Shown piece by piece: positions 12,391 to 38,354 of a stretch of 64,000 nucleotides of DNA. The translations under genes were made by a program, and so were the position numbers. Position 1 is the stretch's first letter. Each line of letters starts with the position of its first letter. The stretch comes from a virus. The notes beneath the pieces were generated by a model. The model was not told the origin of the DNA and ran no database searches. It saw only the letters and a list, made by a program, of their open reading frames with translations. The stretch is from the IMG/VR virus record IMGVR_UViG_3300045988_081755; one strand, given 5' to 3'.

Positions 12391-12875
12391 ACTTCTTCGG
12401 AATGATGTTTCCCTTTCATAGCGCATTCCCTTCCCATATTAGATTGAGAAATTTTCCTCTTTGTTTCGTCAGTGTGCTTCATCCCCCAATATTTAGACAA
12501 ACGAACTTTTGCAGCTTGTCTTGCTTTTTCTCGACGTTCTTCTGTCCATACACTTCCAACCACACCCTCACCACCATCAGTGGAATTATAACCATACTTC
12601 TTTGTTTGAAGTCTTCTAATAAGCCGTTCCTCAATGAAACAAAGTTTGGCTTTAAGAATCCGTCTATTTGGTGCTGTTATTTGAATCACCTCTTCAATCG
12701 TAAAGTTCTCCTCACCATACTTTCTGATAGCCGAATATAGCCTAAAAGGAACCCCACGTCTCGAAGCCTGTTTATGCTCCTTAAATCGTTTTTCAATCGA
12801 CTTCACTGTCTGACCAATGTACATCTTTCCATTGACCAGACAAGTAACGCAATATATGTATCCTTCAATCGTCAT
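12366..12875 (-). CDS. GIY-YIG homing endonuclease, N-terminal part (truncated by a frameshift)
   Basis: GYIYCVTCLVNGKMYIGQT, RFKEH, YGEENF and GYNSTDGGEG. The ORF ends inside a NUMOD3 repeat (GKHHSEEVKKK|DFES*). Confidence 0.8.
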   Translation of the reverse strand: MTIEGYIYCVTCLVNGKMYIGQTVKSIEKRFKEHKQASRRGVPFRLYSAIRKYGEENFTIEEVIQITAPNRRILKAKLCFIEERLIRRLQTKKYGYNSTDGGEGVVGSVWTEERREKARQAAKVRLSKYWGMKHTDETKRKISQSNMGRECAMKGKHHSEEVKKKDFES

Positions 12876-14839
12876 TTTATCATATCTTCAAAATCTTTTC
12901 TCGAAATTATTTTAATTCCATATTCTGACGCTTTTTTCATTTTAGATGACGAACTATTCATGTCGGCTGTTACCAACAGATATAAATCTTTTGATACTCC
13001 GTTTGATACCGTATATCCAAACTGAGGAAGCATCTTTTCAAGTTCTTTATCCCGAAAGCCTGTTAAACATACCTTTTTGAATCCCCCTTCCGGAATTTCA
13101 ACTTTCGGGGACTGAACATAAGTAATAACGATTCTTTTGTCCTTTCCCCTCGACAGATACGTTTTTAGACCCTTTACGAACGTCAAAGCCAGCACGTCAC
13201 CTATTCCCGGAATGAGTTCACATTCGTGCTTTAGAGCGACCGCAGACTCCGCTGTGAGCGCATAACTGTTTGGGTCACGCAACCTCTCAACGGTTTCCCC
13301 ATTCAAGCCGTCCAAAATCTTTTGACAGGTTGCTTCGGCTATCTTTCCATCAAACACGTTAATGGCAGTTAGGTAACGAGCAAGCGGTACACCAGCAAGA
13401 ACCTTTTCAATCTGGCTGAAAACTGTCTTCCCTTTAGACTTTCCTAACAGGTTCTGAAATTCTGATACGTGCGACTCAAGAATTGTATCTATTGTCTTAT
13501 AGCCATGTCCATACAAACGACGTATCGTAGGCTCTTCAAACTGTTCGCAACCCATCGTGCGGAAGAAATACACCATACCAGAGATTACTCTTTCCCTGCA
13601 CGACTCATTTGAGCAAACAAGGTCGACGTGCGTTTCGTTCCATTTAAGCGGTTCACCACAGGACGGACAGATAACAAGGTCGTCCATCATATCGGTGTAC
13701 GCATTCTCATTATATTCGATGGTCTTCAAATGTTTAGGGATAACGTCTCCACCACGTGTAACCTCAATGAACGCTCCTTCGCAAATATGTTGGTCAATCA
13801 GGTAGGCAGCATTATACGCTGTGGCTCGTGATACGGTTGCTCCGTTTATCTCAACTGGTTCAATGATGATTACAGGGTTCAAAACACCTGTCTTCCCAAC
13901 CCCCTTTTCAATGCTGATGACCTTTGTCTGGTACACATCGCACCATTCGTCTTTCTTGAACGCAATCGCATAGGCTGGATTTCCATTAGGAAGTCTTCCT
14001 AACTGTTCCCGAACCTCGTATTCGTCAACCTCAATGACCACGCCATCAATCTTGTATTCAGCGTCAAACCTGTCATGAAGTTCCTCGTCAAGCAACATAT
14101 TCATTTCCTCATCATCAAGTTCGAGGATTTCCTCTATATAGAACCCAACGAATGGGGTAACGTTGTGGTACAGGCTCTTCAGCTTATTCAACATCGTTGA
14201 TTTGCCCTCTTCCATATCCGAGCCGTATCTTACGAAGTCCACATTGGTCATGAAGCGGTTCTTCCAACCATCAGCCGAATTGAACAGTCCGGCAACCATA
14301 TTGCGTGCATTCTTATAGGTGAAGTCAGCTTGGCTGTCCTTGAGGTGGGCGAACGTTTTCTTCTTCATGATAGCCTCTCCCCACGTGTGTATCAACTGTG
14401 GTTCCGGCTCCTGCTGTTCACCATTGAACATCTTCTCGAAGTGTTTATCGCTTACCTGTCCTTCAACACCGTCCCCACGTGTCCAGGCTCTCTTTTCATC
14501 CTCATCTACGACAAGACTTATGCCGTCAAATTTAGGTGTGGCGACAATTTCCTTACAGCCTGCATTGACCATCTTTTGAAGCCACTTGCGGAAATCCTTT
14601 ACCGTCTTTATCTTCTCAAGACTATACATGGGAACAGGGAGCTCTTCCATACGGTCAGTCGCTTCCTCTACAATACCTTTCTTGAAGAACTCATCCTCCG
14701 GACTGTTCTCCCTGAGAGTTTCGACCATGTGGTCATACTCAATATCTGACACTTGAGGATTGCCCTCGCGATAAGCCTTATTCAGAGCGATAAGTTCTTC
14801 TCTCAGGCTGTTAATCTTTTCTTGTTTCATCTTTGCCAT
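12872..14839 (-). CDS. ligA: NAD-dependent DNA ligase
   Basis: 655 aa. Adenylation-site Lys in EYKIDGV, a Zn finger CPSCGEPL..CSNESC, and a C-terminal BRCT-like region, collinear with LigA. Confidence 0.92.
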   Translation of the reverse strand: MAKMKQEKINSLREELIALNKAYREGNPQVSDIEYDHMVETLRENSPEDEFFKKGIVEEATDRMEELPVPMYSLEKIKTVKDFRKWLQKMVNAGCKEIVATPKFDGISLVVDEDEKRAWTRGDGVEGQVSDKHFEKMFNGEQQEPEPQLIHTWGEAIMKKKTFAHLKDSQADFTYKNARNMVAGLFNSADGWKNRFMTNVDFVRYGSDMEEGKSTMLNKLKSLYHNVTPFVGFYIEEILELDDEEMNMLLDEELHDRFDAEYKIDGVVIEVDEYEVREQLGRLPNGNPAYAIAFKKDEWCDVYQTKVISIEKGVGKTGVLNPVIIIEPVEINGATVSRATAYNAAYLIDQHICEGAFIEVTRGGDVIPKHLKTIEYNENAYTDMMDDLVICPSCGEPLKWNETHVDLVCSNESCRERVISGMVYFFRTMGCEQFEEPTIRRLYGHGYKTIDTILESHVSEFQNLLGKSKGKTVFSQIEKVLAGVPLARYLTAINVFDGKIAEATCQKILDGLNGETVERLRDPNSYALTAESAVALKHECELIPGIGDVLALTFVKGLKTYLSRGKDKRIVITYVQSPKVEIPEGGFKKVCLTGFRDKELEKMLPQFGYTVSNGVSKDLYLLVTADMNSSSSKMKKASEYGIKIISRKDFEDMIK

Positions 14840-14850
14840 AACGAAATTAT

Positions 14851-15096
14851 TTAGTTTCTTGATTCTTTTGACAGTTTTTCAATCTTACTGATAGTCTTAT
14901 TGCCAACTTTAAACGTGTGAACACTATACAGAAGATTTTCTTCTTCCTCGTCCCATACCCAATACATAGAAGAATGATTATTGTGTTTCATCAATTCTTT
15001 ACCTTGTCTTCTTGCGATACGAGCAGCCTCTCTTGCTGATGTTGTTTCAACTGTTATTGTATCGCCTCCGTTGTACTGAATATTGAACTTTTTCAT
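14851..15096 (-). CDS. hypothetical protein
   Basis: 81-aa ORF, the first gene downstream of a strong promoter-like element. Confidence 0.45.
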   Translation of the reverse strand: MKKFNIQYNGGDTITVETTSAREAARIARRQGKELMKHNNHSSMYWVWDEEEENLLYSVHTFKVGNKTISKIEKLSKESRN

Positions 15097-15120
15097 GACC
15101 TTTGATTTTAATTGACACTA

Positions 15121-15174
15121 CAAAGGTAATGGATTCTCATGAGATTCCAAAGACTTTTCCCCCGAAAATCTTCA
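15121..15174 (-). promoter_or_regulatory. Bacteroidota-type promoter with a conserved upstream element (site A)
   Basis: Minus strand reads TGAAGATTTTCGGGGGAAAAGTC-TTTG-N19-TACCTTTGTAG. TTTG and TAnnTTTG have the canonical 19-nt spacing. Confidence 0.6.
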
Positions 15175-15211
15175 AAAGGCTGAAGAAATATTTCTATCTC
15201 CCCAGCCTTTT
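15174..15211 (-). terminator. weak hairpin or terminator candidate after the 15238..15852 gene
   Basis: AAAAGGCTG-N20-CAGCCTTTT followed by GAAGATTTT. The loop is large, so support is weak. Confidence 0.3.
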
Positions 15212-15237
15212 AACGTTAATTCGATGATTTTCGCCTT

Positions 15238-15852
15238 TTATTCTTCCATCATATTGTGGTAAAGTTCGAGTCGGATTTTAGCATACGCTGCTTCAACGTT
15301 GGTGAAGGCACGCTGGTTGTTCACCCCCTTGTCATTATATATTTCCGACTCGACTACCTTTGCCACCTGTTCAACCCATTTCGGATTGGTATAGGATGAT
15401 AATTTCTTTCCTCTGAATGTAAAGCAGTCAAACTTTGAATTTCGGTCTTCATGAAGATTGGTTAGGAGCTGTCGTATCTTCTTCGACGTGGCTTCCTTAT
15501 CCGAGATATGATTCTCCTCACAAACCCTCTTAATAATCCGACACACCCTTTCAACCGCCAAGTCAAATGCCATATTCGTGACAGTCTTGATTCGCATCTG
15601 GGTTTCGGGAACGAGTCCCTCGGATATGTTACTGAGCTGAATGTTTTGGTTCCGTGTTTCAGTCAGGAGTTCTTTAAAGGTTTCCCTCTGTGCGCTCATG
15701 GTGTCATTGATAACTTTCATGAACCAACGAAAGAACGTTACCCACATCAATGCTGACAGCACCAAAAAGAATCCGGCAGTAACCGCCATCATCCCTAAAT
15801 CTCCAATTCCTTTTCCCGCTTCCAACGCAGGATTGATTACTTCTGTACCCAT
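15238..15852 (-). CDS. membrane protein (one N-terminal TM helix); remote BhlA/holin-like N-terminus possible
   Basis: A hydrophobic helix MMAVTAGFFLVLSALMWVTFFRWF is followed by a polar helical region. Confidence 0.45.
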   Translation of the reverse strand: MGTEVINPALEAGKGIGDLGMMAVTAGFFLVLSALMWVTFFRWFMKVINDTMSAQRETFKELLTETRNQNIQLSNISEGLVPETQMRIKTVTNMAFDLAVERVCRIIKRVCEENHISDKEATSKKIRQLLTNLHEDRNSKFDCFTFRGKKLSSYTNPKWVEQVAKVVESEIYNDKGVNNQRAFTNVEAAYAKIRLELYHNMMEE

Positions 15853-19085: not shown

Positions 19086-20048
19086 CTAAATTGTTTGGGT
19101 GATTAATTCTTCAAGTTCTTCAGCAAGGTCGGGGTCATTCAAGATAACCTCTCTTGCCTTTTCAGCTCCCTGTGCAAGTGTCTTTCCTTTGTACTTAAAG
19201 AACGACCCTGCCTTCTCAATAACGTTTCGTTCCACGCCAACTGATAACAGCTCTGAAGCCTTATCAATTCCTTCCCCGAAACGAATGTCGAACTCAGCTT
19301 TCCGCAAGGGAGGCGCAACCTTATTCTTCTCCACCTTTACTTTGATGTGGTTAGCGACTTCTTCACCTCTGTCACCTACCACACCCGACTTTGCAATGTC
19401 AAGCACCTGTGATGAATAGAATCCAAGAGCCTTTCCTCCGGGAGTTGTCTTCGGTGAACCGTACACCACACCAATCTTGTCACGATACTGATTAATGAAT
19501 ATCATCAACTGATTGTTCTTCTTGATGTCACCAATTACTCCCGGAAGCCATGTAGCCATAAGACGAGCAAGCACACCCATCTTAGCATCACCCACATCAG
19601 CCTCAAGATAACATTTAGGGAACATCGCAGCCACGGAATCGAGAACGATAGCACCGATTGATTTTGACTTAATCGCTTCCCGAATAATTTCGAGACACTC
19701 CTCCGCAACTCCAGGCTGGCAAAGAATAAACATCTCGGGAGAAATATTCACCCCAATTGCTTCTACATAATCCATGTCAATAGCATTTTCACGGTCAATG
19801 TAGAGAACAGCCTTGCCCGTCTGTTCCTGAATGTTTCTACAGGCTGTTAAAGCCAACGTGGTCTTTCCTGAGGATTCATACCCACGCAGTTCAATAATAC
19901 GTCCGAGAGCGTATCCGCCACCGAGAGCCAAATCTAACGACAAGCTCCCTGACGACACGAACTCGACTCCTTGCTGATTGTTTCCCGCCACTACTTCTTT
20001 TCCGAACTTCTTTTGTAGCGAGTTCACCAAATCTTCTACTCCTGCCAT
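19086..20048 (-). CDS. recA: RecA recombinase (bacterial type)
   Basis: SLDLALGGGYALGRIIELRGYESSGKTTLAL, IVLDSVAAM, ARLMA, IFINQYRDKIGVVYGSP.TTPGGKAL. Confidence 0.92.
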   Translation of the reverse strand: MAGVEDLVNSLQKKFGKEVVAGNNQQGVEFVSSGSLSLDLALGGGYALGRIIELRGYESSGKTTLALTACRNIQEQTGKAVLYIDRENAIDMDYVEAIGVNISPEMFILCQPGVAEECLEIIREAIKSKSIGAIVLDSVAAMFPKCYLEADVGDAKMGVLARLMATWLPGVIGDIKKNNQLMIFINQYRDKIGVVYGSPKTTPGGKALGFYSSQVLDIAKSGVVGDRGEEVANHIKVKVEKNKVAPPLRKAEFDIRFGEGIDKASELLSVGVERNVIEKAGSFFKYKGKTLAQGAEKAREVILNDPDLAEELEELITQTI

Positions 20049-23585: not shown

Positions 23586-26500
23586 TTATAACGTTAAAGT
23601 AACGATATTCGTTTCGTAGTTCGCTCTCAGGACATTCACTTCTTTCCTCTTATCATAAGATAGTGAGCCATTCATAAGAATAAGGTTCGCTCTGACACAA
23701 GACAATAACGGCTCTAACTGTTCATATTCCTGTTGGAAGATAATTACTTCCAGGAACTCATAGTTTGACTCTAATATCAAGCGACACATCGTATCACCTT
23801 TCTTTGTCTTCTTCACCTCGAGTTCGGCAATAAATCCTGCAACAACGACATACCCATTGTTCGGCAGATATTCCGTATTGAGACAGGCTTCCATTCCTTG
23901 GTATTCATACATATCAGGGAACTCGTCTTTAAACCTGTCATAAAGAGCCTGATAGTCAAAGAACGCCAACCCTGACAGTTTCTTTTGAAGTAATCCCCAC
24001 CACCAAGCGTCATTCGCATGATAGTCCGCTCCTGTCAATACAGCGTCGTCTTCTTTGACGGCACTCTTAGTTGAGCCGAGGAAACTAACCAATAGGTCTA
24101 TTCGCTGAGCTGGAGCTTCAACCCCCTCAAGACGGTCAAACGCACCAGCCAATATCAGGTTTCTGATGATACGGCTGTTCACGGCTGAACCCTTCCATTT
24201 GTGTCGGGTGATGAAGTCGTCTAACGACCAATATTGACCGTTCTCTGTACGTTCCTTTAATATTTGGGTTGCAGCCTTTTCTGCGACCTGTTTGACCCCT
24301 GTAATTGACCAATACAAGGCTTTCTCCTCAAAGTTGATAATAACATCGGTCTCCGATATATTGATATCCACAGGTCGTACCGTACAGACGCCAGTCTTAT
24401 TGATTTCCGCAATATAGCGGGAATAGTCGGCTTCCTGAGCATACTTAAACGCAACCGACCAATATTCAATAGGATAGTGAACTTTTATCCACTGAGAGAT
24501 ATAACCTGTTATCGCATAGGCAGCAGCATGACTTCGGTTGAACAGGTACGTCGAAGCCTTATCAATAGCGTCCCACACCTTTTCGCTGTATTCCTGCGTG
24601 ACTCCGTAGTTATCACGATAATACGGGATAAACCGTTCTTTATATTGCTGGAGAGCCTCATACTTCTTCTTCACCATCGCTTTACGAACGTCATCGGCTT
24701 CTACCAACGACAATCCCCCAAGTTCACGGCAAAGTTGCATGATTTGTTCCTGATAGGCAAACACTCCATAAGTATTGTTCAGAATCTTGTCTGTACCTGT
24801 GAAATACTCAACTTTTCTCTGACCCTCTTTACGCAAGACATATTCGTTATGGAAGTTGTTCTCCATCGCTCCTGGGCGATATAGCGAGATAGCAGCGATA
24901 AGGTCTTCAATATTGTCAGGCTTCATCTGTCGACAATAACCTATCAGACCGGAGCTACCAAAGTGAAAGTTATCCTCGTTCCAACCATTCTTGAAATACC
25001 TGTACACCTCTGGGTCATCCAACGGTACACTGAAGATGTCTAAATCAACATTCTCATGCTCCTTTATCAAGCGTACCATGTCCTGGAACTTGTCAAACTG
25101 TTTCACCCCAAGAACGTCCTCTTTCAGGAACCCTGCTGCGTCCATTTCACCACCTTCCCACTCGGTTACATACTCACCCCCATTCTTACGAATAGGAACC
25201 CAATGAAACATATCATGTTCCTCCGGGAACACCATCATCGCACAGGCATGAATTGACTGTGCCTTAGGAGCTGGCATGATAAGCATAACCTCGTTAATCA
25301 GGTCAGAATGCTCAATAACAAAGTTCTTCACCCGTGAATGCGCACAGGCTATTTTGAACAGGTCTTCAGGCTTCCTGTCTTTCACGTCAAAGAGCTTCAT
25401 CATTTCGTTTGTTTCCTGGAAGTCTAACCCATATACACGAGCCATGTCCTTAATCGCTGCACGGAGCTGCAATGCGCTGTACGTTCCCACGGAACATACC
25501 TGTTTCCAGCCGTACCGTTCTTCCATGTACTTCTTCACACGAGGTCGGTCTTCACCTGGATAGTCGCAGTCAATATCAGGGAGTGATACTTTCACACGTC
25601 CTGCATTCAGGAAACGCTCAAAGAGTAGGTCATATTTCATCGGGTCTAACTTCGTAATCCCTAACAGGTAGGAAACAAGACAACCACCTGCGGAACCACG
25701 ACTGATACCCGTCATAATCCCATTACGATGGCACCAGTTGATAATATCCCAAGTAATTAGGAAGTAATCAATTGCCTCACCTAACTTGATAACGCCCACC
25801 TCTCGGTCTATTCGCTCCATAATAACATCTTCACCCCAATCCTCAATGAGGTCTGGGTGACGGTCAAGACCGTCGGCTATAAGAGCCCAAAAGAGGTCTT
25901 CATTTGTTTCATAAGTTTTCGCTTCCTGTTCCGTCATCTTATAGTGGGGCAAGTGTCGCTTCTGGACGTCGATTACAAAGGTAATCGCCTCAGCTATATT
26001 TTCAAGGAACTCCAACCCCTCTGTGAAACGGCTGTACACGTCCATGAACCCCTCATCGGTATCAGGGAACATCGCTGCTATTTCAAGGAACAGTTCATCG
26101 TTCGTCTTGAAATACTGATTGTCGCTATCGTAGGCAGTTGTCCCACCAATACTTTGAAGACGAGGTCTGATACAACTGTACTCCTCGTCAAGATACCACG
26201 CATCTACTGACGGAACAGCTAACAAGTTTCTATCAAGGAAAAACTTCTTCAGGTTCTTCAGATACCACTCATCACGGCTGTTCTCAACGTATTCGCACGG
26301 GTCAAGCTGATACACGGCTGCGTCTACTTTCAAGTCTTTCAACTTGTCATAGTCGGTTGTCTTCGGGTCAAGAAACAATATCAAGTCATCATTATTTCTC
26401 GTGATAGCATTGAAGTCATCGAGACCAATATACTTCGGATTATCGCAATTGATGAACTTGTTTATAGTAAGCAAATCTCGCCAACCCTTTTCATTCCGAG

Positions 26501-27086
26501 CATACACCTTGACAGTAAAGCGATAGTCACGAGGCTGGTCATACACCACGCACTCCATACCTATCACGCTCTTGATACCGTTCTTCTGACACTCGGCTTG
26601 AAACTTCAGCGCACCAGCCAACGAATTCTTTTCACAGATTCCCAACGTGTGAACTCCTAAGAACTTTGCCTTTTTACACCAGTCGGCATAAGTTCCTGTG
26701 CCGGACATCATTTCATATTGACCATGAACACCAAGGAACACCGGAGTAGGAATCTCTTGCTTTGCTGACCCAACATATTTCAGCCGTGTCAGTTTCACGT
26801 CGTTCTCTTTACCTTTGGCGAGCATATAGTAAACTCCTCCAAAACTGAACGCATAGAAATCGCAAGCCGTTTCAACTGTTTCCTCTCCTGAACCTTTTCG
26901 GTTCGGGTCGGCTGGGATTCCTACAAAGTTGAACCCGTCATCAAACAGCGCACCATCGTAGGCTGATTGATACAGTTCGAAGGTCTTTCCCCCTATCTCG
27001 ACCACATAGTCTGAAACAGGGGTAAAGTCCATAAAATTCTTCTTCAGATATTTCTTGAATTTATCCATTGATTTTCTCCTTAACAA
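23586..27086 (-). CDS. dnaE: DNA polymerase III alpha subunit (DnaE-type) with an N-terminal extension
   Basis: SRGSAGGCLVSYLLGITKLDP, the catalytic LPDIDCDY and FNRSHAAAYA are collinear with DnaE. The PHP HxH position reads GVHGQYE. The start may instead be Met7 at 27068. Confidence 0.9.
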   Translation of the reverse strand: MLRRKSMDKFKKYLKKNFMDFTPVSDYVVEIGGKTFELYQSAYDGALFDDGFNFVGIPADPNRKGSGEETVETACDFYAFSFGGVYYMLAKGKENDVKLTRLKYVGSAKQEIPTPVFLGVHGQYEMMSGTGTYADWCKKAKFLGVHTLGICEKNSLAGALKFQAECQKNGIKSVIGMECVVYDQPRDYRFTVKVYARNEKGWRDLLTINKFINCDNPKYIGLDDFNAITRNNDDLILFLDPKTTDYDKLKDLKVDAAVYQLDPCEYVENSRDEWYLKNLKKFFLDRNLLAVPSVDAWYLDEEYSCIRPRLQSIGGTTAYDSDNQYFKTNDELFLEIAAMFPDTDEGFMDVYSRFTEGLEFLENIAEAITFVIDVQKRHLPHYKMTEQEAKTYETNEDLFWALIADGLDRHPDLIEDWGEDVIMERIDREVGVIKLGEAIDYFLITWDIINWCHRNGIMTGISRGSAGGCLVSYLLGITKLDPMKYDLLFERFLNAGRVKVSLPDIDCDYPGEDRPRVKKYMEERYGWKQVCSVGTYSALQLRAAIKDMARVYGLDFQETNEMMKLFDVKDRKPEDLFKIACAHSRVKNFVIEHSDLINEVMLIMPAPKAQSIHACAMMVFPEEHDMFHWVPIRKNGGEYVTEWEGGEMDAAGFLKEDVLGVKQFDKFQDMVRLIKEHENVDLDIFSVPLDDPEVYRYFKNGWNEDNFHFGSSGLIGYCRQMKPDNIEDLIAAISLYRPGAMENNFHNEYVLRKEGQRKVEYFTGTDKILNNTYGVFAYQEQIMQLCRELGGLSLVEADDVRKAMVKKKYEALQQYKERFIPYYRDNYGVTQEYSEKVWDAIDKASTYLFNRSHAAAYAITGYISQWIKVHYPIEYWSVAFKYAQEADYSRYIAEINKTGVCTVRPVDINISETDVIINFEEKALYWSITGVKQVAEKAATQILKERTENGQYWSLDDFITRHKWKGSAVNSRIIRNLILAGAFDRLEGVEAPAQRIDLLVSFLGSTKSAVKEDDAVLTGADYHANDAWWWGLLQKKLSGLAFFDYQALYDRFKDEFPDMYEYQGMEACLNTEYLPNNGYVVVAGFIAELEVKKTKKGDTMCRLILESNYEFLEVIIFQQEYEQLEPLLSCVRANLILMNGSLSYDKRKEVNVLRANYETNIVTLTL

Positions 27087-27708
27087 GTTGAGTTATATCG
27101 TCACCATCCTTACAGCCCAAGCCGATAAAGTATTGAGCGAACTTCTCACTGATATGGTCATTCAATTCGTAGGAATCTGAGTGAAAGTCACAGAAGATAA
27201 TCTGAACTTCCTTTCCCGTCGTTTCCGCAACCTTAAACAGTGCTTCCGCTTCACAGTCAAACCGCAATGAACCGAATACGATATCACAGTCGTGAGCCTC
27301 GCTTTCAGACATCTTTGCCCAAAGATTAGCTACATAGTTTGCCGTCCAACGTGCCCACACATCTTCGCCAGCTAACTTCTTGAGGAATTCCCCAGTCCGC
27401 TGTAACAAGTTACGACCGTCCACCAATGTAGTTTCCAAAATATTCGGACCATCGGCTTCCGGCTTGAACGGAATAAAAACACTACTGCTCAACCGTTTCC
27501 AATCAGCATATTCCTTGGACGTACAGTCAATTCGCTTGTCCTCTCCTACTAAGATTTCCATCAACGTTCTACGAATGCCTTCACTGAAATCCCCCATAAT
27601 CATAGGACGCTCTTCACAGGCAGCACCAACCATCAGTGCTTCCGCATTGTAAGACTTACCACTACCGATAACCCCTACTAATCCATATATCTTTCCTTTA
27701 CGGTTCAT
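27061..27708 (-). CDS. P-loop deoxynucleoside monophosphate kinase-like protein
   Basis: P-loop GVIGSGKS. 215 aa. Located between the polymerase and the nucleotide-modification genes. Confidence 0.5.
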   Translation of the reverse strand: MNRKGKIYGLVGVIGSGKSYNAEALMVGAACEERPMIMGDFSEGIRRTLMEILVGEDKRIDCTSKEYADWKRLSSSVFIPFKPEADGPNILETTLVDGRNLLQRTGEFLKKLAGEDVWARWTANYVANLWAKMSESEAHDCDIVFGSLRFDCEAEALFKVAETTGKEVQIIFCDFHSDSYELNDHISEKFAQYFIGLGCKDGDDITQLVKEKING

Positions 27709-28237
27709 ATTGATTCATGAATTTTTGAATGCTCTTGAACAGCTTCCAATCCTCAGAATATCTGCTCAACAGTTCTTCACAGTTTTTAATACAAGTTAGG
27801 AGTTTCGCTGACGAGTTTCCAAGAGCCTGTTCATTCCGGCAGAATATCCATAGGTCAAGATAATCACACATCTTAAACAGTTTGTATTGGAGCTCCGTCA
27901 TCGTCTCTTTGATTGACTCATCAGAATAGGGGAGAAGATTGGGGTCACCATGACAGATTTCCCATTCAATAATATCCCATGCCGCAGCCGTGTTATCATT
28001 GAACTTCTTTACACAGACATTGAGGTCGCCTGTTACACTTTCAACATAGTCGTGGAGTAATACCTTGTCGAATACATTTATGTCGTAAGCAACGTCCTCT
28101 TCTGAGGCAAACCAACGGAATAGCATACCTACGACCAACCCGTGTTCCAGGAGGTTGTACCCCCGATGATGGGGGGTGTTGGGCAACCTCTGGATGTCTT
28201 TCATTCCTAACAGAATGTCAATTTTCTTGTAATTCAT
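27698..28237 (-). CDS. HD-domain phosphohydrolase, YfbR-like 5'-deoxynucleotidase
   Basis: LLEH (first His) and LLHDYVESVTGD match the YfbR-type HD..E..TGD motif. Confidence 0.65.
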   Translation of the reverse strand: MNYKKIDILLGMKDIQRLPNTPHHRGYNLLEHGLVVGMLFRWFASEEDVAYDINVFDKVLLHDYVESVTGDLNVCVKKFNDNTAAAWDIIEWEICHGDPNLLPYSDESIKETMTELQYKLFKMCDYLDLWIFCRNEQALGNSSAKLLTCIKNCEELLSRYSEDWKLFKSIQKFMNQYEP

Positions 28238-28269: not shown

Positions 28270-29376
28270 TCACCCGATAAACAGTTCGTTCAGTAACGGG
28301 TTTCTGAACTCAACAGGTTGTTTCGTCCAATAACGATAAATAACCTTTGCCCAGTCAAGGAACATTTCATCGGTAAACTCATTGAGCATTTCCTTCAGTT
28401 CCTTTTCGTCGAAGTTTCCACAACGGCACAGTTCCTCGTATCGTGATAACTGGTCGATAAGCCTGTCGAACCCATCCAATGATGTAAACGTAGTCTGGTA
28501 GGAAAAGTTCACTCCGGAAGGATACGAATTTACGTCTCTTTTAGCGATTTCTTCAGCCAACGGAATGAAGCCCTTATAGACATGAAGATTGTCTGCCTTG
28601 TGGTAGTATTTGCCGACAGGCACGCCCACTATCGCTGCGACGTACTCCTGCATCAATGTAAAGTTGAACACGTTCACCGCACTGAACCCCCAAATCAGGT
28701 CATTCGAGCGCATATCAACGTAACAGTTCATCTTCCCACCCACAATCATAAAATGAATTGACCGTGTGCAAGGTGTGTCCTTTGTAAGAAGAATTGGAGC
28801 CTGTTCACCGTCTTCCAAGTTTCCATTGAAATTGTCAGAGATAGGGTCGTGAATTGTGATTACCGCCTCACGAGTGTCAATATCCTGTTTGAACTTTTCA
28901 ATCACGAAACGCAACTGGTCAGTCACGTTCTGATACGTGGTAGGCTTCCGCAATTTAGTTTGACGACCGTTATCGTCTGCCTTGCCATTCTTGTACTGGC
29001 GTGGAAGTAACTGTCCGGACAATGTTACCATCGACTCAAAATTGTCCCCGTAACGACGTATTCTGGGTCCATATCCAGCTCTCATGAACTTACCATCATC
29101 TGAGAAGTTTACAAGGTTCTTCACATAGCTGGCAGGCATCTCCAAACTGTTATCCCCACGAGCGAGCCACAGGCTTTCAATCCAACCAAGTGTCTTATTC
29201 CATTTGCGCTCCGGCACACGAACATAGCGGTCAGTCGGGTTGGTGATTTCAACCAATACTGCTCCGGGAAACTCCCGACACTGATACCCTCTTCGGGTGA
29301 CATCAACTCCGCTCTCCATGAGTCCTTTACACAGCATTACGAGAGCACTACTCAAATTTTCTGCTTGAAAATACAT
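28270..29376 (-). CDS. thymidylate synthase-family pyrimidine hydroxymethylase (candidate dUMP hydroxymethylase)
   Basis: Collinear with ThyA: TRRGYQCREF, IESLWLARGD, nucleophile DTPCTRSIHF, and MRSNDLIWGFSAVNVFNF with Asn at the dUMP-specifying position. 368 aa, with insertions and a C-terminal extension. Confidence 0.7.
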   Translation of the reverse strand: MYFQAENLSSALVMLCKGLMESGVDVTRRGYQCREFPGAVLVEITNPTDRYVRVPERKWNKTLGWIESLWLARGDNSLEMPASYVKNLVNFSDDGKFMRAGYGPRIRRYGDNFESMVTLSGQLLPRQYKNGKADDNGRQTKLRKPTTYQNVTDQLRFVIEKFKQDIDTREAVITIHDPISDNFNGNLEDGEQAPILLTKDTPCTRSIHFMIVGGKMNCYVDMRSNDLIWGFSAVNVFNFTLMQEYVAAIVGVPVGKYYHKADNLHVYKGFIPLAEEIAKRDVNSYPSGVNFSYQTTFTSLDGFDRLIDQLSRYEELCRCGNFDEKELKEMLNEFTDEMFLDWAKVIYRYWTKQPVEFRNPLLNELFIG

Positions 29377-29390
29377 AAGTTTCTTTTTAA

Positions 29391-30422
29391 TTATTCAACA
29401 ATAAATTTTCCTGGTTCGGGGAGAACCGCTTTCCATTTAGGAGGAAACACGAACTCAATCTTCTTTGGGCTCTTTTCGTAGGTGTGTTTGATACGCTCGT
29501 TTCTTCCTTTGTTGAAAGACGCACCTAATCCCTTGGCAAACTTACTTGTTTCACAGAAACAGTTCTGTAGATTTGTCAGTGTCGGCACAGGCTCCCAAGG
29601 CAACGGATTCCACTTCATACCTGTTTCCCTGCAAAAGTTACCCATCAATTCTTCGAAATTTTCGTGAACCCATTTGATTACTCCCACATAATCATAACGC
29701 TTCCCCGACGCTCCGTCAAATGTCCATCCAATCCCCTTTAAAGAACCTGGACCAGTGATTACAAAATCGTTCTCACTGAAGTTGTACAACGGAGAATAAT
29801 TCAGGTCGATACAATATTGCTGAGCCGTGAAGTCCCCATATATCTTCATCTTACGGAATACCCAATACAAGTCCTCAAAGGTCTTCGCCTCTAAGAAGTC
29901 ATACAAGTGTCCGTTCTGAAAGATTTCATCTTCGAAGATACGAAAGTGAGCACGATGCTTGCTCATCCCTGTAATATGTTTATATTCGGGATATTGATAG
30001 AAGAAGCAATTCACGATGTAGGCATTACCATATATCGTGTCTCCGCCATCAACAACCTTGTCAAGAAACTTCGCAATATTCTCCAAGCCTGTTTCATAGG
30101 TGATATCCCCAAATTCCTTCTCGAGTAAATCCCACGTCTCATTCTTATTGAAGTGCTTGAAAAGCAATATGCGAAAGAACATATCTTCGGGTTCGTACTG
30201 TTTACCATTGTAGATTACACGGCTCAACAGGTATTGACTCACACGGTCAAGACAGCGGTACACTGACGTGAATTTATAATTCTGCAATATAGGGTCTTGA
30301 GTCCACGGTTGCGGTTCTCCATTATATTTCTTCCACCAAATATTTTGCCTTTCACAAATCCAATAAAGATAATGAAAAAAGTTATCATTTGGCTTCGGAA
30401 TAAATTTTTCTTTCTGTTTCAT
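29391..30422 (-). CDS. candidate alpha-glutamyl/putrescinyl thymine pyrophosphorylase-family (aGPT-Pplase) DNA base hypermodification enzyme
   Basis: The N-terminal ERQNIWWKKYNGEPQPWTQDPILQNYKFTSVYRCLDRVSQYL matches the W-T-DPIL..(Y/F)(R/K)F(T/C)N.YR..DRV(S/T) signature I recall for this family. The gene neighbourhood also fits. Confidence 0.6.
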   Translation of the reverse strand: MKQKEKFIPKPNDNFFHYLYWICERQNIWWKKYNGEPQPWTQDPILQNYKFTSVYRCLDRVSQYLLSRVIYNGKQYEPEDMFFRILLFKHFNKNETWDLLEKEFGDITYETGLENIAKFLDKVVDGGDTIYGNAYIVNCFFYQYPEYKHITGMSKHRAHFRIFEDEIFQNGHLYDFLEAKTFEDLYWVFRKMKIYGDFTAQQYCIDLNYSPLYNFSENDFVITGPGSLKGIGWTFDGASGKRYDYVGVIKWVHENFEELMGNFCRETGMKWNPLPWEPVPTLTNLQNCFCETSKFAKGLGASFNKGRNERIKHTYEKSPKKIEFVFPPKWKAVLPEPGKFIVE

Positions 30423-31024
30423 ACCAAAATTTTTCTTGAATACATACCATTGCGTTCCCCTGATACAGCCTGCCCAATTTTTCTTCTATGCTCCTCAGAA
30501 AAAGGTTTTCCTCTGCGCCCATCTCCTAATTTCTTCTGAACTTCTGGAGTCAATAAAGCAATCTTCGAGGCTTCACGTTGCTTTTTAACGAATAATTCGT
30601 TTTCACGCAATTTATTCATAAGCATAGATTTCTCTTCCCGAAATTTATCGGTGCAACGTTTCTTTGCAGACTCTGACATTTTGCGCCTGGACTCTTCAGA
30701 AAATATCCTCCCAAATTGCCCTTCGCCTCCCAATGTCATATTGTACCCGTTCCGAAATGTGCTGAACTTCTTGATAAGCCGAATTTCAACATAATCGAGT
30801 TTGGCTTTCAAAGCCTCTTTCGTAGGAGCGGAAACTGTCAGGACTTCCTCAACGACAAAGTTCTCCTCACCATACTTTCGTATGGCTCGGTGGAACTTAT
30901 AATTACTCCCTGAGTGAGCCTCCTGAATATGACGTTCCCATCGTTTTTCAATCAAACGAATTGTTTGACCAAAATACAGTTTCCCAGTCAAAAGACAAGT
31001 CACGCAATAAATGTATCCTTTCAT
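30419..31024 (-). CDS. GIY-YIG homing endonuclease
   Basis: GYIYCVTCLLTGKLYFGQT, RWERH, YGEENF, GYNMTLGGEG and a NUMOD3-like GKPFSEEHRRKIG. It has 4-nt overlaps with both neighbours. Confidence 0.85.
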   Translation of the reverse strand: MKGYIYCVTCLLTGKLYFGQTIRLIEKRWERHIQEAHSGSNYKFHRAIRKYGEENFVVEEVLTVSAPTKEALKAKLDYVEIRLIKKFSTFRNGYNMTLGGEGQFGRIFSEESRRKMSESAKKRCTDKFREEKSMLMNKLRENELFVKKQREASKIALLTPEVQKKLGDGRRGKPFSEEHRRKIGQAVSGERNGMYSRKILV

Positions 31025-31758
31025 TTACCTTTCTCGAATGTTTCAAAGGAGTTTCGCTCTATATAGTCAGAGTTCTCACAGAACTTGACAAAATCATCAC
31101 ACAAATCCTGAAGTTCGAAAAAGTTCAAGATGTGAACACCCAAGTCCCATACGGGAGCGTCATACGGCTGGTCGTGTAACACTACATTGCCGCCAGCTTC
31201 ATTCACCTCTTTTCCTTCTCTTACAGCCTTTTCGTAATCGTGCATAAAGGTACGGTGCTTCCGCCACATGCAATCCCCCTTAGGAGGCTCGCCAGACCTG
31301 TATGCTATACGAGCACAATATTCATCCCATTGGTCATCTCGGTAATCATACCGAACGTGAAGAATGTTAGTGAATTCACTCTCACCACACAAATCCAAGG
31401 GACGTAGTCGCCATGATACGGTTGTTCCCGCACCGTCAATCAATACTCCATGTCCTGCTTTTGAGGTTTCCTTCAGGAAGTGAGACAGTCCCTCAGCCTT
31501 GCACAGTCGCGACGTCATACTGTCGTAACCTTGCCAACGCTTGATACCACCGTTCTCGTAGAACTTCCCTACGAACACCATGTTAAAGTCTTCAGAATAC
31601 ACTCCGACTTCCTTTTCCTTTCCGTCAAGAGTTGTAAACTTATACGGACGGAGTTTCATACCTAATGATTCCAGGAACTCCAGGAAGAGATAAACCCTTG
31701 TGGATTTACCGCTCCCTGAAATTCCCTTCACCAATACTATTGATTCCCCGTCTACCAT
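31021..31758 (-). CDS. P-loop kinase, candidate 5-hydroxymethyl-dU DNA kinase (5-HMUDK)
   Basis: P-loop GISGSGKST. 245 aa. Separated from the aGPT-Pplase candidate only by a homing endonuclease gene. The assignment rests on context. Confidence 0.45.
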   Translation of the reverse strand: MVDGESIVLVKGISGSGKSTRVYLFLEFLESLGMKLRPYKFTTLDGKEKEVGVYSEDFNMVFVGKFYENGGIKRWQGYDSMTSRLCKAEGLSHFLKETSKAGHGVLIDGAGTTVSWRLRPLDLCGESEFTNILHVRYDYRDDQWDEYCARIAYRSGEPPKGDCMWRKHRTFMHDYEKAVREGKEVNEAGGNVVLHDQPYDAPVWDLGVHILNFFELQDLCDDFVKFCENSDYIERNSFETFEKGK

Positions 31759-32477
31759 TACTTCTTCTTTGGAGTTTTCTTTGCGGGAGCAGCTTTGGTT
31801 TCCTCAGCCAGTTCAAGAGCTGTAACACGTTTCTTGATAGGCTTGTCGTCACCGAACTTCACCATACACTTCTCTTTTCCATCACCGGATTTGTACAGAC
31901 GTGTGATTTCACCAACAGCGTCTTCGCCTTTCAGTTTCACCTGAGAGCCAACTTTCATTCCCGGAATTTCTTCTGACTCTTCCAAGTTCTGACGTTTGGT
32001 TTCACGAGGAGTCTTGTCAGCTTTCGCTGCCTTTTCCTTCTTCATACCTTTGTCAGACTTCGAAGGAGTCTTGCGGTTTTTCTGACGTTCTTCGTACTCA
32101 GCCTCAGCCTCTACCAAACGAGCTTCCTCTTCCGGAGTCAGTTGTTCTTCCGACTGATAGGTTGAGTTACGTTTGTTCTGACGCTGCATAGCAGCTTCGG
32201 GTGAACCGTCTTCAGGGTCAGGGTCTTCGGCAGTTTCTTCTTTCGCAGCTTTCTTAGGAGCAGCCTTTTTATCAGCTTTCTTTTCAGCGACTTTCTTGGC
32301 TGGAGCTTTCTTAGGAGCTTCCTCTTCTTGAGCGGTTTCGCCACCTAACTTGTCAAGGAACTCTTGAGCTACCTTAACTTCCAATTCACTTGAATTCTCA
32401 TCGTTGATGATTTCTTCGAGCTTTTCAGCGTCGAACTTTCTGTACTTCATCCGAAGTGCTAATGCATTACTTGCCAT
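31758..32477 (-). CDS. Lys/Glu/Ala-rich, largely low-complexity protein with a C-terminal SH3/KOW-like segment (histone H1-like repeats)
   Basis: APKKAPAKKVAEKKADKKAAPKKAAKEE, then a small globular-looking GMKVGSQVKLKGEDAVGEITRLY..KCMVKF, then AAPAKKTPKKK. Confidence 0.55.
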   Translation of the reverse strand: MASNALALRMKYRKFDAEKLEEIINDENSSELEVKVAQEFLDKLGGETAQEEEAPKKAPAKKVAEKKADKKAAPKKAAKEETAEDPDPEDGSPEAAMQRQNKRNSTYQSEEQLTPEEEARLVEAEAEYEERQKNRKTPSKSDKGMKKEKAAKADKTPRETKRQNLEESEEIPGMKVGSQVKLKGEDAVGEITRLYKSGDGKEKCMVKFGDDKPIKKRVTALELAEETKAAPAKKTPKKK

Positions 32478-32596: not shown

Positions 32597-33046
32597 TTAT
32601 TTTTTGCCGGAATGACCAAATCCACCCGCACCTCTCTCAGTGTCAGTGAGTTCTTCGACTGAAGAAACTTCGACAACTTCCTCGGCTTTTGCATACGGAG
32701 CAAAGACGATTTGGGCAATTCTGTCACCATTCTCGATTGTTTGTGGTTCTGTCGACAGGTTAATCAACGGAACACCTACTTCCCCACGATAGTCAGCATC
32801 GATTGTTCCGGGAGCATTGATTACGGTCAAACCTTGTTTCACGGCACAACCGCTGCGAGGTCTAACTTGTCCTTCGTGTCCGGGTTCGATTTCCATGTAC
32901 AGCCCAGTCGGAATAATTTTTCTTTCCATAGGGTTCAACACGATTGAGCCTTCCGGAAGATAAGCTCTTAAATCCATTCCTGAACTGTCAGGAGTTTTGT
33001 ACTCGGGAAGCGCATTCCCACTCTTGTTTACGATTTTCAGTTTCAT
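32597..33046 (-). CDS. dut: trimeric dUTPase
   Basis: SGMDLRA, PRSG, GTIDADYRGEV and the C-terminal ERGAGGFGHSG motifs. Confidence 0.92.
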   Translation of the reverse strand: MKLKIVNKSGNALPEYKTPDSSGMDLRAYLPEGSIVLNPMERKIIPTGLYMEIEPGHEGQVRPRSGCAVKQGLTVINAPGTIDADYRGEVGVPLINLSTEPQTIENGDRIAQIVFAPYAKAEEVVEVSSVEELTDTERGAGGFGHSGKK

Positions 33047-36254: not shown

Positions 36255-38354
36255 TTATACTGCATCAACTTTAATTAGAACGGTGCTCTCTCGTAGCTTG
36301 TTAATTGCCATGAAAGATGAAGAAACTGTATCATCGTGCCCACTGATACTCTCAAGAGTTCCCTTATCGCTTCGAAAAGCAACACTATTGAACTCCCCAA
36401 ACATCTGGTCTACTTTTTGCTTCGTATCCGGATGATACGGGCACTTGATAGCTCCTCTCTCATATAACGCTGCGAGCGACGCCCATCCTGTTCTCAAATC
36501 CTTTTTATTCCCGGAAGTAGTCGTGAATGGCGTGATGTTCTTTATTCCCATTTGAACGCACATATCAGCCAAAATACTTTGAAAGCCGTTGTTCTCAACT
36601 ACTATCTCATTTGGCTTAAATACACGGTTCAACAAATCTATCTTTGATATCTGTTCATTATGGGATAAGCCTTTCTCACGGTAAATGTGCAACAGGTAGT
36701 AATTTCCTTGGATATCCTTTCCCCAAACTGTATAGCAGGTATAGTCGGCTCCCACGTTACCCGACACGGCAAAGTCGCAACCAATCACCACCCGTACCAA
36801 CTTGATAGGAAAAGACTCAATATTATCTACCAACCTGATGTTTTCCATCCCGATTGTACTCCTCTTTAATATCTCCCAAGGGAATATTGTACTGTCGTCG
36901 GAAATAGGTACGACAAGGTACTCACGAGAGAATACCATCGTCCCCAGAGACAGTTTTTCCTCCATTAGCTTATTCCATGTGAAGCGGTCAGGAGCTAACA
37001 GACGTCCGTCCGGAAATATTGCAGGGTACTCAAAGACCTTGAACTTCGGGTCTTTCTTTAATTCGGCATATAAGTCCTCCTGCTGATACGGTGTACCATC
37101 AACGAGATTATACCCATACGGCTCAACAATAGGAGTGATAGCACCTTTAAACAGGTCTCTCAGCTTCTCACGCTGTTCCAGCGAATAGATACTACTTTCG
37201 TCAGGCAAGTCATCACTGACTGCTGCCCCAACGTGAAGACCACGAATAAACCCGTCCTTTCCACGTAGGTGTAATTTCGTACCATTTTCACATTCTATAC
37301 TCGTCGCTGCCAGTGAAGCCTTCCCAGTAGGGTTCAGTTTCGCTGCCAACGCTTCATTCACACGAATTTCCTCTACCACCTTGTCGATATGCTGTTTACC
37401 CAGCTTCTCCGTATTGGTGATAATACAGGTTTCCTGACGATTCTTATTATCTGGAATGTCAGGTCTCATAAACGTTGGTCGTCTATAACTATACAGCCTC
37501 CACAACGGAAACGCCATACAGAACTCATAGGAGTTGTGAACAACGGTTCCATCCTCTAATTGAAACAGGTGGTCACCATCGCACATAAATCCATAATAAG
37601 ACTCTTCCCCTATCGGTGAAACTGTTATATTACTCCTTTCTAAGACAGGCTTATCAAATGAGAAAACTCTGTACCCCTGAAATCTTCTTTGTTTCTTTTC
37701 AGGATACTTCAGGAATTGACCCATTTCAATCTCAACATATTTCTTTCGCTTCGTATCCCACAGGCACATCACGTGTGCTCGGTTCACCGCATATGGCATA
37801 CCGTTTTCTTGCTCAACCCTGAACATCTGTGCCCGACCTATATGCCGAGTCAGAACTTTTCGAGGTGTAAAATCAATTCCCATGACTTCCATTCCGGGAT
37901 AAATGTCTTCAACGTTCTTCACGGAAAAGTCCGCCATTAAGATACGAGTCCCTCTGGCAAAACACTTTCCGTGAGAACGAGCAGCAAGATAAGCACTGTT
38001 CGGATATAGTTGAACCATGTTCCCCCATTCAAGATTTCTCCAACCTTGACGAAAATTAGGAAGCATAGTCGTTTTGAAATAGTTGTACGACTGAACCTTT
38101 AAGGTCTCATCCATTGATTCCTCTAATTGGTCAATGTAGTTAAGCCGTTCAGTCTCAAGAGTAGTATTTAGGGAAAGAACATTATTTGTCTGAATGAAGA
38201 TTTCTGATAGGAGTGCGTCCACATCACCCCCATAGCCGTTCATCAACTGATTTACAGCCACAGGTGGTAAAGACTCTATAACGTTGAACGCAGTAGAAAA
38301 GACGGTGTCCAACTGTTTATATGATAGCTTCAAATCTTCATTAAAATGTATCAT
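36255..38354 (-). CDS. terL: terminase large subunit interrupted by a mini-intein
   Basis: The exteins total ~555 aa. Walker A reads LAARSHGK|S across the intein. The C-terminal nuclease region carries VVIGCDFAVSG. Confidence 0.78.
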   Translation of the reverse strand: MIHFNEDLKLSYKQLDTVFSTAFNVIESLPPVAVNQLMNGYGGDVDALLSEIFIQTNNVLSLNTTLETERLNYIDQLEESMDETLKVQSYNYFKTTMLPNFRQGWRNLEWGNMVQLYPNSAYLAARSHGKCFARGTRILMADFSVKNVEDIYPGMEVMGIDFTPRKVLTRHIGRAQMFRVEQENGMPYAVNRAHVMCLWDTKRKKYVEIEMGQFLKYPEKKQRRFQGYRVFSFDKPVLERSNITVSPIGEESYYGFMCDGDHLFQLEDGTVVHNSYEFCMAFPLWRLYSYRRPTFMRPDIPDNKNRQETCIITNTEKLGKQHIDKVVEEIRVNEALAAKLNPTGKASLAATSIECENGTKLHLRGKDGFIRGLHVGAAVSDDLPDESSIYSLEQREKLRDLFKGAITPIVEPYGYNLVDGTPYQQEDLYAELKKDPKFKVFEYPAIFPDGRLLAPDRFTWNKLMEEKLSLGTMVFSREYLVVPISDDSTIFPWEILKRSTIGMENIRLVDNIESFPIKLVRVVIGCDFAVSGNVGADYTCYTVWGKDIQGNYYLLHIYREKGLSHNEQISKIDLLNRVFKPNEIVVENNGFQSILADMCVQMGIKNITPFTTTSGNKKDLRTGWASLAALYERGAIKCPYHPDTKQKVDQMFGEFNSVAFRSDKGTLESISGHDDTVSSSFMAINKLRESTVLIKVDAV
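37533..37964 (-). mobile_element. 144-aa mini-intein (no endonuclease domain) in the terminase P-loop
   Basis: Starts with CFARGTRILMADF (block A). Block B-like AVNRAHVMCL. Block F/G YYGFMCDGDHLFQLEDGTVVHN, followed by +1 Ser. Codon positions were checked against the DNA. Confidence 0.8.

Follow-up and report, generated by a model that had tools for sequence, protein, structure and literature searches.

The question raised by IMG/VR virus record IMGVR_UViG_3300045988_081755 is what becomes of 5-hydroxymethyl-deoxyuridine (5-hmdU) in the DNA of a phage that encodes a kinase for it. In the 64,000 nucleotides (nt) analyzed here, referred to as the window, an open reading frame (ORF) of 343 codons with an ATG start occupies 29391..30422 on the minus strand, among genes for 5-hmdU metabolism. 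From the N-terminal sequence of this ORF, a preliminary description had suggested the alpha-glutamyl/putrescinyl thymine pyrophosphorylases (aGPT-Pplases). The ORF belongs to clade 1 of these proteins, the Pfam family PF18723. On balance, we consider it probable, with modest confidence, that its product is a DNA-acting enzyme that processes the kinase-made 5-phosphomethyl-deoxyuridine (5-PmdU) via Cys290, by a chemistry analogous to that of clade 2, and is the only such enzyme in this phage.

Family Membership of the 343-Residue Protein

In a Pfam scan, the protein gave a single match, to PF18723, listed as "HMUDK_hel, 5-hmdU DNA kinase helical domain" (E = 9.1e-75, 252 bits, cut-off 25). The match spans residues 15–297 of the ORF and positions 4–273 of the 281 in the profile, and thus corresponds to a near full-length, single domain. 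No other Pfam family appeared, even at E ≤ 10. The preliminary description could not place the rest of the protein, which is in fact one PF18723 domain throughout. It had also named the outcome that would speak against its assignment, a lack of any clade profile match together with another fold; the scan gave the opposite, and the family had been named correctly. Its suggestion of a divergent new clade, by contrast, was ruled out, as the ORF falls squarely within clade 1. PHROGs placed the protein in phrog_2396, function unknown (E = 1.3e-52), and a scan of NCBIfam gave no model matching it. PF18723 was found in all 3,260 close homologs. Judged by its sequence, the ORF is a bona fide, typical member of clade 1.

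PF18723 can be equated with aGPT-Pplase clade 1 because SP10 gp186C, YuA gp14 and the protein entries named after that clade all fall in it. SP10 gp186C and ViI gp160 were listed as aG/PT-PPlase1 by Lee et al. 2018 (PMC5889632, Table 3), and residues 313–598 of SP10 gp186 match PF18723. In YuA, Pfam assigns gp10 to PF18724 ("ADDT"), gp13 to HMUDK_HMUD1 (PF18748) and gp14, which comes directly after gp13, to PF18723. Among the structural matches in BFVD, described below, are UniProt entries that bear the name [quoted passage not shown]. In the SN1 genome note (PMC9476957), the M6-type cassette consists of genes for Nmad5, aGPT-Pplase1, nucleotide kinase, rSAM, PLP and aGPT-Pplase2, and the gene adjoining the kinase is the one called aGPT-Pplase1. 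CBA120 orf156, from a ViI-like phage of the Ackermannviridae, is a relative of the 343-residue protein and matches PF18723; its orthology to ViI gp160 was not checked. Lee et al. 2021 gave the Pfam name of M6 gp51 as "aGPT-Pplase2". Pfam has therefore renamed clade 2 to ADDT (PF18724) and, by inference, clade 1 to HMUDK_hel. The term "pyrophosphorylase" used in the preliminary description is outdated: the product of the kinases is a monophosphate, and transferase activity has been shown for clade 2 alone (PMC8989533). PF18723 itself is already known as a family that accompanies enzymes that replace and decorate thymine in phage DNA.

A different name is attached to the cellular homologs in Psychrobacter (≈41% identity), which NCBI and UniRef list as "nucleotide kinase domain-containing protein" though the domain has no P-loop. 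The name would make the 343-residue protein a nucleotide kinase, but this protein has neither a Walker A motif (G/AxxxxGK[ST]) nor a match to a kinase family, and the name was inherited from the Pfam label of a domain that occurs in fusion with a kinase only in some proteins. Since it lacks a P-loop, the kinase reading is effectively refuted by the sequence, and we give it next to no weight.

Conserved Residues

An exhaustive family search yielded 5,181 cluster representatives (50% identity clusters), 3,622 of them at E ≤ 1e-10. Conservation was counted over the 150 best representatives of the PF18723 family, mutually <50% identical, and residues are numbered as in the window protein. Arg25 (144/144), Arg56 (146/146), Asp59 (147/147), Gln202 and Asp206 (both 150/150), and Glu291 and Lys294 (both 147/147) were conserved throughout, with Cys290 (145/147) and Arg60 (144/147) close behind. 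Phe51, Phe198 and Gly226 were likewise essentially invariant. All of the family-invariant residues, from Arg25 to the Cys290, Glu291 and Lys294 group, are present in the window protein.

The N-terminal signature quoted in the preliminary description, WWKKYNGEPQPWTQDPILQNYKFTSVYRCLDRVSQYLLSRVI, is a real part of the translated ORF, corresponding to residues 29–70 (30213..30338, minus strand), and contains the invariant Phe51, Arg56 and Asp59 and the near-invariant Arg60. The family consensus of this stretch is TxDPILxxxKFTNVYRxLDRVSQYL. The search pattern given for it did not hold in its literal form, as the spacer between DPIL and the Tyr-Lys-Phe has two residues instead of three and Ser53 takes the place of Asn, but a lightly relaxed form did match at residues 40–62. 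The Asn replaced by Ser53 (codon 30264–30266) is near-invariant in the family (143/146 representatives), and in the clade-1 alignment, Ser is found there only in the window protein and a 91%-identical relative. Further along the minus strand, the segment FTAQQYCID (29805..29831) carries the invariant Phe198, Gln202 and Asp206, and the glycine-rich loop GPGSLKG (29733..29753) the near-invariant Gly224, Gly226 and Gly230. Based on its GxG pattern and on the helix-hairpin-helix (HhH)/glycosylase-like fold stated in PMC8989533, GPGSLKG is possibly an HhH-type loop contacting the DNA backbone. Lastly, QNCFCETSK (29541..29567) lies on a helix of the predicted structure (residues 282–298) and is the candidate active-site helix, with Gln286, Asn287, Cys290, Glu291 and Lys294. 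Its Cys-Glu-x-x-Lys motif is essentially invariant across the family.

An invariant constellation of polar residues over representatives less than 50% identical favors an enzyme over a passive helical accessory. The accessory alternative is a non-catalytic domain that binds DNA, or recognizes or flips 5-hmdU, and presents the base to a partner, which would be the kinase here and glycosyltransferases or methyltransferases elsewhere. Such a role is implied by the current Pfam name and would fit the occurrence of PF18723 fused or adjacent to P-loop kinases. About a quarter of the 150 representatives are multidomain; in ten of these that we inspected, the partners were a thymidylate-kinase-like P-loop domain, a group 1 glycosyltransferase, MazG with MazG_C, NADAR with an N6_N4 DNA methylase, and MT-A70. 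The fusions to the glycosyltransferase, the two methylases and MazG/MazG_C are as expected for a reusable DNA-targeting module. (In a machine-learning study, aGPT-Pplase, MazG and MazG-C were among the uncharacterised domains in highlighted predicted defence systems; PMC13092281.) An accessory role would also agree with the dispensability of the clade-1 protein of M6 in vitro, discussed below. However, near-absolute conservation of Cys-Glu-x-x-Lys together with Arg, Asp and Gln residues is typical of an active site and not of a binding scaffold. The SP10 kinase domain is active alone, and the PF18723 domain is therefore not needed for phosphorylation. The closest solved fold, although a weak match, belongs to an enzyme with a catalytic Cys at the aligned position. 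We regard the accessory role as unlikely.

The 5-hmdU Gene Module

The 343-residue ORF is surrounded by a conserved module for 5-hmdU nucleotide metabolism and DNA modification. In the order of transcription on the minus strand, it consists of genes for a dUTPase, a 239-residue Lys-rich protein, an HMUD2 kinase, a homing endonuclease, the 343-residue protein, an enzyme with the thymidylate synthase (TS) fold, an HD nucleotidase, a protein resembling deoxynucleoside monophosphate (dNMP) kinases and the DNA polymerase III alpha subunit (Pol III alpha). The kinase (245 residues; 31021..31758, minus strand) is a P-loop 5-hmdU DNA kinase of the HMUD2 type (PF18747 HMUD2, E = 2.1e-23) with the Walker A motif GISGSGKS. 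The TS-fold enzyme (368 residues; 28270..29376, minus strand; PF00303, E = 2.4e-15) is 31% identical to the SP10 dUMP hydroxymethylase (E = 2e-35) and 28% identical to YuA gp17, and is probably a dUMP hydroxymethylase and the source of 5-hmdU. The kinase–ORF–TS-like arrangement is conserved in relatives. In SP10 gp186, the PF18723 domain is fused to the validated kinase, and in YuA it adjoins the kinase.

No gene for a clade-2 amino acid:DNA transferase (ADDT, PF18724) was found among the window ORFs by Pfam (25 of 33 families listed), and an ADDT hidden Markov model run over the six-frame translation of the window gave no clade-2 sequence (best E = 2.5). Precomputed Pfam annotation of the 10-kb flanks on both sides likewise contained no clade-2 gene, nor did the other ≈30 kb of a relative of 109,370 nt, IMGVR_UViG_3300045988_073438 (loci L020, L050 and L047). 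With no clade-2 gene detected, the 343-residue protein would be the phage's only 5-PmdU-processing enzyme. No clade 2 was detected in SP10 either, though SP10 makes glutamyl-thymine (Lee 2018, PMC5889632). Outside the window, the same relative encodes a full-length DUF2400 protein of 250 residues (PF09674, E = 1.2e-62; L050 10439–11191, plus strand), for which we found neither a relative of solved structure nor a link by profile to either clade.

Predicted Structure and Relation to Clade 2

The AlphaFold2 model of the 343-residue protein is all-alpha, with a predicted local distance difference test score of 94.6 and a predicted template modeling (TM) score of 0.92. Foldseek comparison of the model with BFVD retrieved other members of the family at TM scores of 0.62–0.73, including SP10 gp186 (TMq 0.73, E = 5.8e-12), PhiW-14 C9DG43 and two "Pplase1 clade 1" entries. 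This comparison had been proposed in the preliminary description and bears out its family assignment. Directly after the family came a group of proteins named "Amino acid:DNA transferase" (E = 0.019–0.35, TM ≈0.41–0.46). The best fold match among 350,542 PDB chains was 8z2m, the 5-PmdU glycinyltransferase gp46 of PaMx11, although it was weak (E = 0.74, TM 0.38/0.43). A sequence search of PDB with the single protein produced only otulin matches (E ≈0.01 over 66 residues), which were judged spurious, and a PDB search with the family profile gave nothing relevant.

OGG1 glycosylases ranked after 8z2m in the PDB search. Their presence among the weak Foldseek matches, and the description of the aGPT-Pplase families in the literature as having a DNA-glycosylase-like HhH fold, could indicate an HhH-superfamily DNA glycosylase or lyase that excises a base, for example from host thymine-containing DNA or in repair. 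The OGG1 matches are very weak (TM 0.18–0.27, E > 4), however, and no Pfam glycosylase family matched even at E ≤ 10. Moreover, modification of a base, not its excision, is suggested by the conserved Cys-Glu dyad and by the linkage of the gene to those for 5-hmdU synthesis. Glycosylase activity is thus very improbable.

The residues of PaMx11 gp46 have been assigned roles (PMC11472151) and were paired with those of clade 1 in a profile alignment below significance. In this alignment, the base-stacking Trp146 of gp46 corresponds to clade-1 Phe198, the glycine-amine-binding Lys150 to Gln202, the wedge residue Phe173 to Phe215, and Asp175, which contacts the nucleoside, to Glu217. The metal ligands Glu243 and Thr244 align with Gln/Glu286 and Asn287, respectively, and the nucleophile Cys247 aligns with Cys290. 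The [E/Q]-x-x-x-C spacing in QNCFCETSK is the same as that between Glu243 and Cys247 of gp46.

Proposed Function

Phage kinases add one phosphate to 5-hmdU in DNA; in the clade-2 enzymes, a Cys then attacks C6 of the base, the phosphate is expelled, and glycine, serine or a polyamine is captured on the exocyclic methylene (PMC8989533, PMC11472151, PMC13458397). By analogy, the phage would make 5-hmdUTP and replicate with 5-hmdU in place of T, and the HMUD2 kinase would phosphorylate 5-hmdU in the DNA to 5-PmdU. The 343-residue protein would flip the modified base into a pocket, with Phe198 stacking on it and the loop from Gly224 to Gly230 on the backbone. Cys290, assisted by Glu291/Lys294 and Gln286/Asn287, would add to C6 of the pyrimidine, and departure of the phosphate would leave an exocyclic methylene at C5. 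A nucleophile might then capture the methylene and so yield a hypermodified thymine; alternatively, its reduction would give thymine. The role proposed for Cys290 follows reactions that have been demonstrated in the distantly related transferases of clade 2.

Reduction of the intermediate is a sub-case of the proposed chemistry, in which the protein would be a thymine-forming enzyme that uses the same Cys–C6 adduct and exocyclic methylene to turn 5-PmdU that has escaped hypermodification in DNA back into canonical thymine. PhiW-14, SP10, ViI and M6 convert 5-hmdU in DNA to either a hypermodified base or thymine, and the thymine-forming enzyme is unidentified (PMC8989533). Table 3 of Lee 2018 gives a clade-1-type gene to each of these phages, with an M6 assignment (gp51 vs. 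gp55) that conflicts with the 2021 paper. The clade-2 protein M6 gp51 yielded thymidine in the presence of borohydride. The alignment of the amine-binding Lys150 of gp46 with the invariant Gln202 would fit a co-substrate other than an amine, and the window phage has the kinase and no detectable clade-2 transferase. On the other hand, Pfam showed no hydride-donor or cofactor-binding motif or domain in the 343-residue ORF, the idea has not been tested in the literature we found, and regeneration of T from 5-hmdU would gain the phage little unless another modifying activity exists. We consider formation of thymine by this protein quite unlikely.

Returning to the proposed processing of 5-PmdU through Cys290, several observations weigh against it. 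Homology of clade 1 to clade 2 falls short of statistical support (hhalign probability 0.24%, E = 0.25; Foldseek TM < 0.5), and the residue pairing comes from a non-significant profile alignment, which favors the matching of conserved columns by construction, so that it is a lead and not proof. The literature searched contains no report of a biochemical activity for a clade-1 protein. When glycinyl-thymine formation was reconstituted from lysates, the clade-1 protein of M6, gp55, was dispensable; ViI gp160 was one of the five ViI lysates, and we found no statement of whether it was required. The absence of clade 2 is that from profile searches of a composite of ≈109 kb, made up of the window and a 94–100% identical relative. 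Finally, we surveyed the neighbors of PF18723 genes in 37 diverse IMG/VR loci by Pfam scan of two genes per side. Among the matches listed (the best 25 of 61 families), the commonest flanking genes were TS-like (15), DNA polymerase A (11), TET-associated glycosyltransferase (5) and ADDT (4), and the HMUD2 kinase was an immediate neighbor in only one of the 37 loci. The rarity of the kinase, next to frequent TS-like, polymerase and glycosyltransferase genes, suggests that the role of the family may not always depend on phosphorylation. Hydroxymethyl-pyrimidine DNA is a more consistent companion of the PF18723 family than the kinase is. A similar pairing of TS with aG/PT-PPlase1 has been reported in pelagiphages (PMC9599517), and Brevibacterium phage LuckyBarnes has a comparable arrangement.

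More tentatively, and as a possibility that falls somewhat short of probable, we suggest that the HMUD2 kinase and the clade-1 protein between them do all of the DNA-level 5-hmdU chemistry without clade 2. Clade 1 would then be catalytically autonomous, with an active site related to that of ADDT yet chemically distinct, since Gln/Asn replace the metal-binding Glu/Thr and Gln replaces the amine-binding Lys. The product of such a two-gene module would be either an undescribed modification of thymine or the result of the long-sought DNA-level conversion of 5-hmdU to thymine.

Other Module Genes and the Homing Endonuclease

The remaining module genes are also on the minus strand. The dUTPase (149 residues; 32597..33046) matches PF00692 (E = 1.1e-27). 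The 239-residue Lys/Ala/Glu-rich protein (31758..32477), with KKAPAKK-type repeats, had no match in Pfam or PHROGs; it keeps its place directly upstream of the kinase in all relatives inspected (L005–L009) and may be a DNA-binding protein. The HD-domain, YfbR-like 5'-deoxynucleotidase (179 residues; 27698..28237; PF12917, E = 1.2e-13) is a candidate for editing of the dTMP/dNMP pool. The 215-residue dNMP-kinase-like protein (27061..27708) matches PHROG 139, deoxynucleoside monophosphate kinase (E = 6e-9), and no Pfam family, and is a candidate 5-hmdUMP kinase. Pol III alpha (23586–27086) is one intact ORF of 1166 residues from a TTG start, and the gene called in relative L009 has 1160 residues.

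A free-standing GIY-YIG/NUMOD3 homing endonuclease of 201 residues, identified by both Pfam and PHROG (30419..31024, minus strand), sits exactly where the kinase gene meets the PF18723 gene, and an ATGA overlap joins it to each of them. Relatives L005–L008 lack this endonuclease, and in them the kinase gene overlaps or abuts the PF18723 gene; in relatives with a 75% and a 66% identical ortholog, the overlap is 20 nt and 1 nt, respectively, and no endonuclease intervenes. DNA alignment with L005 and L007 showed a clean insertion of ≈600 nt in the window at this junction. Gaps of 601–786 nt at the same junction in five other relatives (L054, L058, L059, L065 and L073) suggest that homing there has been recurrent. 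We also considered that the kinase, endonuclease and 343-residue ORF might be pieces of a split fused gene; this was rejected, as kinase and PF18723 are separate, overlapping genes in the relatives without the endonuclease.

The phage genome appears to be rich in homing endonucleases. Two further window ORFs match GIY-YIG and NUMOD3; the 287-residue ORF at 4387–5250 (minus strand) has a weak GIY-YIG match in the precomputed annotation. The large terminase (699 residues; 36255–38354, minus strand) contains a Hom_end-associated Hint (intein-type) domain together with Terminase_6C. In the 66%-identity relatives (L007 11310–16412 and L008 4699–9801), Pol III alpha is split in two ORFs by an inserted 290-residue ORF, with an intein-splicing domain in the second part, whereas the window gene is intact.

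The Phage

The exact 343-residue protein is on record in 106–109 kb contigs from several metagenome assemblies, and one window protein was present in >1,000 index blocks of the collection. A megablast search of 13 kb of the window against GenBank phages gave no match, and there is therefore no close isolate. The nearest relatives of Pol III alpha, at 30–40% identity, are in phages of Tenacibaculum, Cellulophaga, Chryseobacterium and Bacteroides, and the window encodes Listeria-Bacteroides repeat (Flg_new) proteins. The phage belongs to an abundant, widespread, uncultivated gut-metagenome lineage of ≈109 kb, the nearest cultured relatives of which infect Bacteroidota, and from these protein relationships we infer a Bacteroidota host.

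Every long ORF of the window runs on the minus strand; the G+C fraction is ≈0.41–0.47 throughout. Pfam families among the window ORFs include Cpn60/GroEL, RecA and NAD-dependent DNA ligase. Precomputed gene tables place the first two at 2691–4307 and 19086–20048 (minus strand), respectively; our guess is that the ligase is the ORF at 12872–14839 (minus strand). In the flank beyond the window start, a 178-residue gene (L012 17460–17996) has precomputed matches to Sequestin and Tad2-like families, which we take to be anti-defence proteins. Near it are a sigma-70-like gene (14915–15526) and, on the opposite strand, a ferritin-like gene.

Comparison with Known Systems

Clade 1 is a large group (5,181 clusters at 50% identity) found in the classical thymidine-hypermodifying phages and with no demonstrated activity, and the labels "helical domain" and "nucleotide kinase domain" given to it by Pfam and NCBI probably undersell it. 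The locus described here is a clean natural test case, as a widespread gut phage combines 5-hmdU synthesis genes, a DNA kinase and a clade-1 protein with no recognizable clade 2. It also bears on the possible presence, in common gut phages, of modified thymines with effects on restriction, sequencing and virome analysis.

HhH-GPD glycosylases such as OGG1 have a helical DNA-binding fold that published work has suggested as the evolutionary source; they and the 343-residue protein both have a glycine-rich loop. Unlike these glycosylases, this protein has only marginal structural matches to them, no profile match and no sign of glycosylase catalytic residues.

The clade-2 ADDT proteins (PF18724; M6 gp51, ViI gp247, PaMx11 gp46 in PDB 8z2m/8z2n and YuA Pplase2 in PDB 25qc) are all-alpha, as is the model of the 343-residue protein. 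In the weak alignment, an [E/Q]-x-x-x-C motif falls on a C-terminal helix in both, and the paired positions for base stacking and nucleoside contact carry aromatic and acidic residues. The two groups belong to one pathway and probably act on one substrate, 5-PmdU in DNA. In contrast to ADDT, and subject to the weak alignment, the metal ligands Glu-Thr are replaced by Gln-Asn, Lys150 by Gln202, and Lys248, which follows the catalytic Cys, by Glu291. Transferase activity has been demonstrated for clade 2 only.

Clade 1 itself, represented by the C-terminal domain of SP10 gp186, ViI gp160, YuA gp14 and PhiW-14 gp72, has in common with the 343-residue protein the near full-length profile, the invariant residues and the predicted all-alpha fold. 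In the cultured phages, its members keep the same genomic company, a 5-hmdU DNA kinase and a dUMP hydroxymethylase. The window phage differs from these systems in that no clade-2 partner was detected in its genome and in the Ser53 that replaces the family Asn. It also differs in host lineage, being a gut metagenome phage related to phages of Bacteroidota, and its protein is only 20–33% identical to the clade-1 members of cultured phages. At position 286, the window protein has Gln, whereas CBA120 orf156, SP10 gp186C and YuA gp14 have Glu. Finally, the clade-1 proteins of SP10 and YuA are paired with kinases of the HMUD1 type, while that of the window phage is paired with one of the HMUD2 type.

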